Assembly: GCA_965207225.1 (NCBI GenBank)
Contig: CBDBLV010000004.1
Location: forward strand, 576,001 to 640,000
DNA length: 64,000 nt
DNA from: Dehalococcoidia bacterium
GTDB lineage: Bacteria > Chloroflexota > Dehalococcoidia > Plut-88900
Reading direction: 5' to 3'
Of the stretch, positions 12,423 through 22,495 are shown piece after piece. A program made the position numbers and the translations under genes. The notes under the pieces are model-generated. The model was not told where the DNA came from, searched no databases, and saw nothing but the letters and a program-made list of their open reading frames with translations. Every line of letters starts with the position of its first letter. Position 1 is the first letter of the stretch.

Positions 12423-12623
12423 ATGACTAGTCTGGCCGAAATCAAGGAAGCCATCCAAAACTTGCCCCCCGCCGACTTCGCTGAAATAGCCCAGTGGTTC
12501 AATGACCTGCAAGAGGACTTGTGGGACCAGCAAATCGAAGCCGATGCAGATGCCGGCCGTCTTGACTTCTTCAAAGAACAAGTCGAGCAGGCCCTGGCAG
12601 CCGGCACTGTGAGAGACCTGTAG
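12423..12623 (+). CDS. Small acidic antitoxin-like protein
   Basis: 66 aa, WDQQIEADADAGRLD motif typical of partners of ParE-like toxins; AGGTG RBS. Confidence 0.75.
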   Translation: MTSLAEIKEAIQNLPPADFAEIAQWFNDLQEDLWDQQIEADADAGRLDFFKEQVEQALAAGTVRDL

Positions 12624-12877
12624 CGCACCGTACCATACCCCAGTTTTGGGAACACCTCGCCTCCCTGCCCGAGCCGATTCAGCAGGTCGCCCACCGTAAC
12701 TTTCAACGCCTCAAGGAAGACCCTGCCTACCCATCCCTCCGCTTCAAGAAAGTCGGAGACTACTGGGTAGCTCGCGTCGGACCTAATTGTCGTGCCCTCG
12801 CCGTGACCAGGGGGGCAGACCTGTTTTGGGTCTGGATCGGCCCTCATGACGCCTACGAACGAATAATCAGTTCCTGA
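12620..12877 (+). pseudogene. ParE/RelE-like toxin reading frame lacking a canonical start codon (missed by ORF track)
   Basis: Manual translation VAHRTIPQFWEHLASLPEPIQQVAHRNFQRLKEDPAYPSLRFKKVGDYWVARVGPNCRALAV..WIGPHDAYERIISS*; first codon GTA. Confidence 0.75.
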
Positions 12878-13106: not shown

Positions 13107-13159
13107 TACATCTTTCCATGTCATACCTTCCCTTCTCCCCCGACCCCACCTCCCACCTA

Positions 13160-13187
13160 TTGATTTTGTAAATGTATGTGCTATACT
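13160..13187 (+). promoter_or_regulatory. sigma70-like promoter of cassette 1
   Basis: TTGATT-16-TATACT with TG extended -10, in an AT-rich patch. Confidence 0.65.
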
Positions 13188-13379
13188 TATGTTCGTGGCA
13201 CCGGCCTCGTTACCCGGGCCACCAAACCAGGAAAGGACTAAAGGAGTCCCATGAGCCGCATAGGCCTCACATGGCCCCGTCGCACCCGGTCGGTATGGGA
13301 CCGACCCTCTGCCGACACGCACCTCCTCCCCACTACCTTTCCGCCTACCGTGTCCCTCAGCCCTTCACCCTTCCCCCGT

Positions 13380-13808
13380 GGAAGTTCAAAGCCCAGCGCC
13401 CCCTCTCGACCACTGTCGTCCGGCGTCACTAAGGAGCCGCAACTTACCTTGCTGCCCCACCCGGACGTGGATGCCCGCGGTTTTCCGCGGAAGGACCCCA
13501 CCTGCGCCCATAGCGGCGTACGGATGGATGCCTGCTTTCACTCGCTGCAGATGTTCCCACGGCTAACCCCCGCGAGTGCCCCCCTCCGCCGTGGATGCCT
13601 GCCCAGGCTCGCCGCAGATGTATTTCCCACAGCTAACCCTTTGCGAGCTTTCCCCTCCGCTGTGGATGCCCGCGCCTTTGCGCGGAGGTACGCCCGCAAC
13701 GCCCTACCCGGCCTTGCGAAGATTGCCCGGGCCAACGCCCAGGCGATTGCCCACGTTCCAACCCCCGACGCCCCGGCTTACGCCGCAGAGGGGGCGCTGG
13801 CAACTTCC
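13380..13808. ncRNA. Putative structured non-coding domain, cassette 1 (unknown family)
   Basis: Perfect 14-bp terminal IR CCAGCGCCCCCTCT (13393-13406)/AGAGGGGGCGCTGG (13787-13800) plus outer GGAAGTT/AACTTCC; four TGGATGCC-led modules. Confidence 0.5.
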
Positions 13809-13853
13809 TCATTTAGTTCCTCTTCCTCCTACGCCATCCCCTCCCTTATTCCT

Positions 13854-13971
13854 AGTACTGAACTAGAGGCAAGCGCCTGCGCCATGGCGCAGGCGCTTGC
13901 CTCTGTTTTTTCCTCCCCCTCTCCCTTGAAGGCCCTAAGGGAGAGGGGGATCAAGGGGGTAAGGGTTCCCC
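13854..13971 (+). repeat. Variable-palindrome repeat, copy A
   Basis: AGTACTGAACT + perfect 40-bp palindrome 13865-13904 + TCCCCCTCTCCCTT hairpin. Confidence 0.8.
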
Positions 13972-14175
13972 TCCCCGCCCCTTAAACAATCAAACCCATG
14001 CCTGAAACCCCAATTCAATCAAAACCTCCCTAGAATCCGGGAGTCCCTTCCCCCACAATTGAATGCCCCGGCCACCGTCCGACCCCCGGCCGCTTGACCT
14101 GAACGCCCATAGGCGTAACAATGGCGCCCACAGGCCGGTCTTTACCCAATCGACTAGACGCAGGGGGTGAACGGG

Positions 14176-15276
14176 ATGGGATACCGGATTATTTCAGCGG
14201 ACAGCCACCTCGATCTGCAGTGGCTTCCCCACGACGCCTTTACTTCCAGGGCCCCGGCTGAGTGGAAGGACAAGGTCCCGTACGTCGAGGCCCGCCCCGA
14301 CGGCAACTACTGGATGGTCGAAGGCCGCACCATGACCCGCGCCGGCTGGTATGGCCCGGGCGTCAACGGCGGCAAGCGCGGCGAGATGCTCGAAAGGGAG
14401 GGCTTCACCGTCGGCGACCTCCGCTGCTCCGACTACCAGCTCAGAAAGGCCGACCAGGAACGCGACGGCGTCGACGCCGAGGTCATCTACGGCATCCTCA
14501 CCACCGACCGCAGCTTCGACGACAAGGAAGCCCTCGCCGCCACCTACCGCGCCTACAACGACTACATCTCCGAATGGCAGCAATACGACCCCGACTGGCT
14601 CGTGCCCCTCGGCGAGATCCCCAACCATGACGGCAAGGCCGCCGGCGGTGAGCTCTCCCGCCTGGCCGAGATCGGTGTCCGCGGCGCTGAGTTCGCCCCG
14701 GCAACCATGACTCACCCCTTCTGGAGCGACGAGTGGGAGCCCCTCTGGGATGCCGGCGAAGAGACTCAGCTTCCCGTCTCATTCCACGCCTTCAACATCT
14801 CGACCACCTTCTCCGACAAGGACCACCCCTCCGCCGCCGCCGTCAGCCTCTGTCTCGCCCCATCACGCGCCGACGAAGTCCTCTGCGCCCTCATCTTCTC
14901 CGGCGTCCTCGAACGCCACCCGAGACTCAACGCCATCCTCGGCGAGAGCGGCATCGGCTGGCTGCCCTTCATGCTGGAGCGCATGGACTACTCTTACGAC
15001 CGCCGCCTCACCGACCTCGAACTCCCCCTCCTCCCCTCCGAGTACTTCAAGCGGCAGGTCTACGCCAGCTTCATCATCGACTACTGGGGCACAAAGGCCA
15101 TGTGGGAGCTCGGCTACCTAAAGAACATCATGTGGTCCACCGACTACCCCCACCGCGATGGCTCCTGGCCCGACTCCCAGGAGATCATCGACCGCACCTT
15201 CAAGGACCTCCCTGAGGACGTCAAGAAGGCCTGCGTCCACGACAACGTCGTCCGCCTCTTCAACCTCAACGACTGA
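14176..15276 (+). CDS. Amidohydrolase_2 family protein
   Basis: SADSH, EVIYG, SFH, GESGIGWLP, WSTDYPH. Confidence 0.92.
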   Translation: MGYRIISADSHLDLQWLPHDAFTSRAPAEWKDKVPYVEARPDGNYWMVEGRTMTRAGWYGPGVNGGKRGEMLEREGFTVGDLRCSDYQLRKADQERDGVDAEVIYGILTTDRSFDDKEALAATYRAYNDYISEWQQYDPDWLVPLGEIPNHDGKAAGGELSRLAEIGVRGAEFAPATMTHPFWSDEWEPLWDAGEETQLPVSFHAFNISTTFSDKDHPSAAAVSLCLAPSRADEVLCALIFSGVLERHPRLNAILGESGIGWLPFMLERMDYSYDRRLTDLELPLLPSEYFKRQVYASFIIDYWGTKAMWELGYLKNIMWSTDYPHRDGSWPDSQEIIDRTFKDLPEDVKKACVHDNVVRLFNLND

Positions 15277-21372: not shown

Positions 21373-21451
21373 AACAGCAACCCTAAGATGCCGGTTTCCT
21401 GAGGAACGTTCGGAAAGGAGGGCAAGAAGCAGACTCAAAGAAAAAAGGCAC

Positions 21452-21568
21452 CCGGCGGCGACCTATTTTCCGCGGAGAGTTGCCCCTCTAGTATCGTCGG
21501 CGCAGAGGTGTTTCACTTCCGTGTTCGGAATGAGAACGGGTGGGCCCACCTCGCTATAGCCACCGCAG
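21452..21568 (-). rRNA. rrf: 5S rRNA, unlinked from 23S
   Basis: Reverse complement GGTGGCTATAGCG..CACCCGTTCTCATTCCGAACACGGAAGTGAA..GCGCCGACGATACT..GGAAAATAGGTCGCCGCC; flanking AAAGGCAC/GTGCCTTT stem and U-tract. Confidence 0.95.
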
Positions 21569-22036: not shown

Positions 22037-22495
22037 GGCGATGGAAGACGCACCTGGAGCGGTGACCCCGCAGGGTGTCGCTGGCCCGGCCGTACGGGGT
22101 CGGTCAGTCCGGTCCCGCCTCACTGGACGGTCGGACTGCGGCCGGCAGAAGCCCCTTTCTTTAGTGTCGGCTTGGAGGCGTCCCAGGGCTGGGGACGTGT
22201 CTCCGCCGCTGCCTAGATCTGGCTGTGTAGGCGGACATACGGGTCCGTCATCCGTCACAGGTTCCAATAAACGGGTTAGCTGCGCTGTAAGTGAATACAG
22301 GAAGGGGAATGTCCAGAGTCATGTCCCCACGCAGGAGTACGGGGTTTCCAGTTCGCCGCCTGTATCCAGGAACCCGGAGTGGCGGTCTGCCCAGTTTCAT
22401 TTGCTGAAGCGGACGGAGAGCCGAGCGGTCCTCGGCTACGGGCGACCCCGTTCCGCTCCTTAGGTCGGGTTGCTCCAGGGCGTCTTTCCATCGCC
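22037..22495. ncRNA. Putative structured non-coding domain, cassette 2 (unknown family)
   Basis: Terminal IR GGCGATGGAAGACGCACCTGGAGC / GCTCCAGGGCGTCTTTCCATCGCC; ends and one internal hairpin shared with 58885-59332. Confidence 0.6.

Follow-up and report, generated by a model that had tools for sequence, protein, structure and literature searches.

A 429-nt domain (13380-13808) that belongs to a repeat confined to one genus of Dehalococcoidia is probably an RNA for protein docking, and neither a protein gene nor a CsrB-type sponge, because the two-hairpin unit that it carries in tandem is also repeated in genes related to a putative small terminase. The domain lies in a 64,000-nt window of contig C4 of genome G000, whose relatives and homologous proteins carry the Dehalococcoidia label. 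Its fold keeps a fixed register, its unpaired linkers are conserved, its copy number changes by whole units and an open frame runs through it without protein constraint; in addition, the unit is common to 11 small-terminase-related genes, and different family members occupy the same intergenic slots. Our favored reading, which we hold tentatively, is that the domain is a stem-closed ring of tandem units that is translated and could act as a multivalent protein-docking RNA, with small-terminase-like proteins as the most likely ligand. The array cassette is a real, undescribed variant; a search of the non-subscription literature returned no description of this element.

Structure and distribution of the cassette

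The domain forms the 3' two-thirds of a ~650-bp repeat, from about 13154 to 13802, in which a promoter, a 5' hairpin, AAGGAG-ATG and the stem-closed domain follow one another (Table 1). Three close copies (91-98% identity) lie in unrelated flanks, and the cassette head is common to 17 copies in this genome. Another 36 cassettes, all non-coding, have a closing stem of GCGATGGAA/TTCCATCGC (from an initial 45 motif pairs, three were dropped as chance and six lie among the 17 head-sharing copies), and the genome holds at least 53 cassettes altogether. The cassette has matches in all eight other genomes of the genus, while 52 other genomes yielded just two matches of 31-36 nt; among the genomes searched it was found only in this genus. 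The next gene lies in the direction of the cassette for 33 of 35 non-coding and, by simple in-house gene calls, 14 of 17 coding-type cassettes.

Table 1. Features of the cassette and its surroundings in the window.
Feature	Position	Strand	Remark
Sigma-70-type promoter, extended -10 (TTGATT-16-TG.TATACT)	13160..13187	+	common to 17 copies
5' leader hairpin	13195..13222	+	
Shine-Dalgarno AAGGAG and start codon	13241..13253	+	kept in the 17-copy head
244-codon open frame	13251..13985	+	spans the structured domain and downstream hairpin repeats
Outer arm, left	13380..13386	+	aligns, in sister cassettes, with the left stem arm that derives from the large terminase
Closing stem, 5' arm	13393..13406	+	compensatory C-G/U-A change between subfamilies
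Module 1 (57 nt)	13466..13522	+	H1 13475-13490, then second hairpin
Module 2 (67 nt)	13523..13589	+	H1 13532-13550; H2 13557-13563 pairs with 13588-13594, the start of module 3
Module 3 (71 nt)	13590..13660	+	H2 13627-13633 pairs with 13659-13665 (covariation)
Module 4 (57 nt)	13661..13717	+	H1 13670-13685
Degenerate fifth module	13718..13757	+	GGATGCC still present in some relatives
Closing stem, 3' arm	13787..13800	+	similarity between cassettes stops at ~13802
Short palindromic repeat cluster	13845..13975	.	>100 copies genome-wide; the ORF reads through it in frame
Amidohydrolase gene	14094..15276	+	downstream, own promoter; marks the slot
Cassette 2	22039..22493	-	non-coding branch, GCGATGGAA/TTCCATCGC closing stem, no module

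By inspection, the two cassette ends (~13154 and ~13802) show no complementarity to each other, the inverted repeat being internal, and no target-site duplication was seen in three copies; no clean empty allele was available for comparison, because slots also gain other DNA. Upstream, two small overlapping ORFs of 66 and 84 codons (12423-12875, +), which we take to resemble an antitoxin-toxin pair, have no Pfam or NCBIfam match; the pair is present in G008 and missing from the empty slot of G006.

A 10-mer shared with cassette 2, noted in the preliminary description, does exist but is at chance level: some shared 10-mer appeared in 27% of 5000 shuffles, and this one occurs seven times in the genome, so that a link to cassette 2 through the 10-mer is not supported. 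Cassette 2 is followed on its own strand, after about 470 nt, by a lone 5S rRNA gene (21450-21567, -), which was the sole Rfam match over the window; no 16S/23S match was found in the window. At the locus of the domain Rfam returned no family at the gathering score and sub-threshold hairpin matches only, and searches for tRNA and tmRNA found none.

A tandem array of two-hairpin units

The 429 nt fold with z = -5.8, and none of 100 shuffles folded as well. The perfect 14-bp inverted repeat first reported for this domain is confirmed by the sequence (closing stem, Table 1), as are all four occurrences of TGGATGCC (13468, 13525, 13592 and 13663), the hairpins of modules 1 and 4 and the near-duplication of modules 2 and 3 (77% over 82 nt, E 2e-8 genome-wide). 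The G-C/C-G swap noted between the outer modules is upheld across orthologues (GC 8, CG 5, broken 2; n = 15). An outer 7-bp inverted repeat (13380-13386/13802-13808) is present here but perfect in just 2 of 28 copies, and the division into separate module types A and B had to be given up, as both are one homologous two-hairpin unit.

We examined 28 array cassettes from eight genomes, picked from the cassette matches described above; 15 belong to this subfamily and 13 to a sister type. This is not a full census, as more exist. Each carries two to six unit copies in tandem, the array in the window having four to five. The unit is laid out as GYGG-AUGC-(hairpin H1)-AWG-linker-CCRC-(hairpin H2), and its length is 57, 60, 69 or 72 nt, or else comes in the pairs 67+71 and 56+58. 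In 33 arrays, five of them gene-borne, CCRC pairs with GYGG of the following unit in fully Watson-Crick fashion at 94 of 109 junctions, as against 65 of 142 for the register within a unit. The variable pair at the next-unit junctions is G-C in 56 cases, A-U in 51 and another combination in two, and a pair in H1 is C-G 59 times, U-G 47 times, U-A 36 times and never C-A, which singles out the sense strand. Covariation thus sets the fold of the tandem array, each unit pairing with the next; the closing stem covaries between subfamilies as well. The H2 helix of module 3 is weak in a single-sequence fold, which does not favor the helices of this module. Across 42 short units, identity is 0.99 in the unpaired linker, 0.95-0.96 in the stems and 0.55-0.58 in the loops; the pairs in this alignment are 97.6% intact, yet without covariation excess, since 241 of 500 shuffles scored as high. 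The motif is retained even in a frame-shifted module.

A covariance model of the unit gave 31 matches in this genome and found the module in all nine genomes of the genus and in none of 32 others. In a pattern scan of all species genomes, just two loci among the 80 listed had multiple matches, both of them Dehalococcoidia. Because copies and repeats are kin, counts of units and copies are not independent.

The repeated GGAUG had suggested a likeness to CsrB/RsmZ sponges, with which the array shares hairpin units that could titrate a protein and a repeated GGA. However, a search for csrA came up empty in all nine genus genomes (87-93% complete), with a control that was positive in 3 of 14, and the GG of GGA forms covarying base pairs here, whereas CsrA is described as preferring single-stranded GGA in loops and as binding more weakly when GGA is paired (PMC7652899); the RNA is also translated and multicopy, unlike those sponges. 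With csrA missing and GG paired, the array is not CsrB-like, and the chance that it is a CsrA sponge seems close to negligible.

Kink-turns have GA directly flanking the stem on both strands. In the array GA stands 4 nt from the stem, and PF01248 (L7Ae family) was not found in this genome; a kink-turn or box C/D array was therefore rejected.

A transcript cut unit by unit into small RNAs or guides, in a CRISPR-like manner, would fit the regularity of the units, their invariant motif and their variable loops; processing units were among the possibilities raised in the preliminary description. The loops, however, are 4-11 nt long and often identical across units, there are no unique spacers and no nuclease gene among the neighbors scanned, the frame is kept across units, and RNA contigs span several of them, which makes such processing quite improbable. 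These contigs originate from two metatranscriptome studies of sponges and match 13263-13678 and 13512-13759 at 93-95% identity; they give a weak hint of cassette expression, as they come from relatives, may stem from any copy, are strandless and have no silent-region control. They do not cover this organism's flanking genes, which we do not read as silence.

An open frame without peptide constraint

The distance from stem to stem falls into one phase in 26 of 28 cassettes, across 11 distinct lengths, and the odd units 67+71 and 56+58 compensate each other and restore the frame. The frame is open through the stem in 24 of the 28 copies, whereas shuffled sequence of that length was open in 123 of 5000 trials, and for 16 of this genome's 17 heads the frame runs through the cassette without a stop. 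Behind the cassette, over 9013 nt from the 16 intact G000 copies (one broken copy was omitted), the ORF frame contains 13 stops and the other two frames 132 and 48. As a rule the ORF stops just short of the following gene, which shares its strand in 14 of 17 cases.

It would be tempting to infer a repeat protein or peptide precursor with repeats of about 20 residues, given the strong ribosome-binding site, the open frame and unit lengths that are mostly multiples of three. However, dN/dS is 0.52-1.42 in 11 pairs of cassette ORFs, as against 0.04-0.06 in six control pairs of the neighboring amidohydrolase, and the frame switches locally between ORF homologues. Furthermore, structure prediction for the peptide gave no fold (pLDDT 50, pTM 0.11), ORF 13251-13985 has no match in Pfam or PHROGs, and its codon score is negative. 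The dN/dS values, frame flips and absent fold largely refute such a protein, which we regard as very improbable. The preliminary description named as refuting evidence that the module be absent elsewhere and that a conserved protein from this ORF explain the region; the module is found elsewhere and the ORF, with dN/dS near 1 and no predicted fold, is not a conserved protein.

By the evidence of the sequences, then, the domain appears to be translated under selection for an open frame and not for a peptide. Translation is not required by the family, as about 36 members have no open frame at all, non-coding cassettes having stops in nearly all frames. Cassette-type ORFs sit in protein databases as hypothetical proteins (22 matches), a point on which annotators should be cautious.

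Rickettsia palindromic elements are known to be inserted in frame in genes. PARCELs, too, are palindromic repeats tolerated within reading frames, with varying copy number, but they keep an amphipathic peptide, whereas here the amino acids are unconstrained and the frames flip (PMC2996958). A PARCEL-like protein-coding repeat was rejected, as there is no purifying selection on the amino acids.

Rho prefers C-rich unstructured RNA; it is present in this organism, and the sense strand is 41% C. Since Rho is described as ending transcripts that are not under translation (PMC11551753), translation of the cassette may be a shield against it.

Terminase ancestry and exchange of slot contents

In translation, sister cassettes correspond to part of a large-terminase-like protein of 462 aa, which was found in 41 of 61 genomes searched and whose gene in G000 sits with portal and capsid genes amid housekeeping genes. 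Within the gene, an inverted repeat frames the copied piece. This repeat is strong in the genus (-21 to -33 kcal/mol, nine genes); the same region in 19 genes from other genera is irregular (-10 to -28 kcal/mol). Two further points concern the large terminase. It is widespread in the class, with two to four full copies in this genus, and only in the genus do its genes (L078-L086) contain the ~15-bp inverted repeat, whose arms are 393 nt apart and alter amino acids at both ends.

Direct descent of the flagged interior from the large terminase was rejected, because a DNA profile of the segment found nine sister loci and 0 of 28 array cassettes at E<=10. The array cassettes are tied to the terminase-derived family by the shared promoter-hairpin-RBS-ATG head and by their slots, and only their arm remnants align, by eye, with the large-terminase segment; we therefore read them as having the frame of the family, with an interior replaced or diverged past recognition. 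The promoters of the cassettes and of the terminase operon look alike, and a resemblance of the unit junction to the large-terminase G-V-G-A-G-V-A codons is merely suggestive. PDB sequence searches with the terminase piece and the full protein came back empty.

Arrays of the two-hairpin unit also occur in 11 multicopy genes that are relatives of the putative small terminase, with five to six 60-nt units at five loci and two partial units at six. An HMM of the small-terminase-position protein from other genera had 11 hits in 34,531 ORFs, namely the two operon genes and nine of the 11 module genes (E 6e-4 to 0.25 for the latter, below 0.01 in four of nine), and the downstream domain of the module genes matched the first terminase-operon gene with a profile match of 96.8%. 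The label 'small terminase' comes from gene order, the gene lying before that of the large terminase, and from a single weak family match (E 3.7e-4, well under the cut-off); a fold search of the small-terminase-position protein returned nothing at E<=0.001. In G000, the module genes are at C2:367422-367766, C4:180563-180907 and C5:1098884-1099228, 1273096-1273381 and 1804516-1804860, and at C3:202639 and C5:487041, 673089, 805218, 941640 and 1137747 (L067-L077 together). In all 11 the start codon is only ~14 nt past the -10 box, the RNA module is in the 5' part, and a small-terminase-like helical domain is followed by an acidic tail.

Since the arrays sit in small-terminase-like genes, one could imagine a signal at the DNA level, with arrays serving chromosome-wide as pac-like packaging-start or binding sites for a domesticated, gene-transfer-agent-like terminase. 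Small terminases recognize pac sites (PMC7947584), and terminase, portal and capsid genes are present amid housekeeping genes. However, the one-strand G-U bias, the covarying long-range helices and the selection on the frame point to RNA, and the two operon-linked small-terminase genes carry no module; we consider this improbable.

The family is multicopy and intergenic, has its own promoter, and is present or absent at orthologous sites. In the slot before the amidohydrolase, this array subfamily is found in G000, G007 and G008, the sister array in G001, a non-coding cassette in G002 and G003, and a piece of a small-terminase-like gene in G005; there is nothing in G006, G009 and G010 and other DNA in G004 and G011. 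Other slots, defined by the downstream neighbor only, are mixed likewise, with array cassettes where G000 has a module-bearing gene. Spread as a retro-element (SINE-like) was rejected as a general rule, as the reverse transcriptase RVT_1 is in three of nine genomes, whereas the module is in all nine (the genomes being incomplete); recombination between shared flanks is therefore the likelier route. G000 has four reverse-transcriptase genes of 580-650 codons (C2:158087, C5:1548409, C5:1553980 and C5:1671488; L061, L064, L066), two of them identical in score and none linked to cassettes here.

A selfish or tolerated repeat is a possible, if somewhat doubtful, alternative. On this account the cassette is a movable promoter, its interior folds and undergoes translation only to avoid harm (Rho polarity, decay), and the modules bind nothing specific, being homogenized by tandem duplication and gene conversion. 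The high number of cassettes per genome, their orientation towards the next gene, slots that are either empty or filled by any family member, and the confinement to this genus would all be in keeping with it. It is less easily reconciled with unpaired linkers that are near-invariant beside drifting loops, with the upkeep of the motif in a shifted frame, or with a downstream gene that still has its own promoter.

Comparison with known elements and proposed role

Pneumococcal BOX elements are built from a head, a variable number of tandem units and a tail, and are intergenic, with promoter activity and a narrow host range. The BrickBuilt MITE of Porphyromonas gingivalis is similar in all these respects (PMC4596501), but the units described here are RNA modules of two covarying hairpins that stay in frame and recur in a family of protein-coding genes, unlike those of BOX and BrickBuilt. 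Likewise, the Correia, ERIC and REPIN elements, which are putative mobile promoters, are intergenic, multicopy and lineage-restricted and place a promoter before unrelated genes; unlike these promoter-bearing repeats, the cassettes have no terminal inverted repeats, occupy fixed slots with exchanged contents, descend from a terminase operon, and combine a covarying 400-nt fold with a selected open frame without peptide constraint (PMC3575422). By analogy, the array cassette would seem to work most like promoter-bearing modular repeats. It is also related to the small/large-subunit terminase operon of tailed phages and gene transfer agents, as sister cassettes are pieces of the large-subunit gene and the module is in small-subunit-like genes; in contrast to such an operon (PMC7947584), the flagged interior has no detectable large-subunit match and a packaging role is only conjectural here. 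What is added in the present case is the identity of the unit across two repeat classes, the link to the small terminase and the open frame through the downstream repeats.

We return to the protein-docking RNA. 'Repeated protein-binding units', one of the interpretations first proposed for the array, is its best reading, although the binding is putative and the protein partner is a guess from co-occurrence. Transcription would start from the cassette promoter, and ribosomes would traverse the C-rich RNA and the hairpin repeats, so that Rho and a terminator-like hairpin inside the palindromic repeat cluster (13864-13905) would fail to stop it; blocked termination would also allow read-through towards the next gene. 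The invariant unpaired AUGC/AWG linkers may be the recognition site for a ligand of the small-terminase-like family, which the cassette could titrate as a decoy for an autoregulatory site. A ribosome moving along the RNA would melt the ring, which means that folding and translation have to take turns. Copies might move and swap interiors through recombination between the shared promoter and repeat flanks, with neither transposase nor reverse transcriptase.

More speculatively, and in our view unlikely in its entirety, a domesticated phage packaging operon might have spawned ~60 self-promoted RNA cassettes and 11 small-terminase-like genes that share an interchangeable RNA module bound by the small-terminase-like proteins, forming a genome-wide RNA-protein control or decoy network in which translation is only a shield. 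If true, it would amount to a 'translated non-coding RNA' of a new sort, made from viral parts. The cassettes offer a clean natural case of a frame selected for openness and not for its product over a covarying RNA fold, and make translation as a protection of bacterial structured RNAs directly testable. Moreover, the module ties together two gene-derived repeat families that stem from a single packaging operon of phage type, and it points to a candidate binding protein.

Several minor observations concern the phage-type genes of this genus. G000 has a split gene-transfer-agent-like head set amid housekeeping genes (C5:227107-243287, L236 and L028; C1:233071-235075, L027), which comprises a small and a large terminase, a small membrane ORF, a portal, a scaffold-like gene and a capsid; a search with the SU10 capsid family had no match anywhere and is uninformative. 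In G002, an ORF directly behind a cassette (L017) has an N-terminal GAPKGNxNAxKHG-type motif, presumably a small-terminase N-terminal motif. Finally, a 141-codon frame at C5:240851-241276 (-) in G000 starts over the large-terminase stop codon and covers a palindromic repeat cluster ahead of the portal gene, where the repeats are again under translation.
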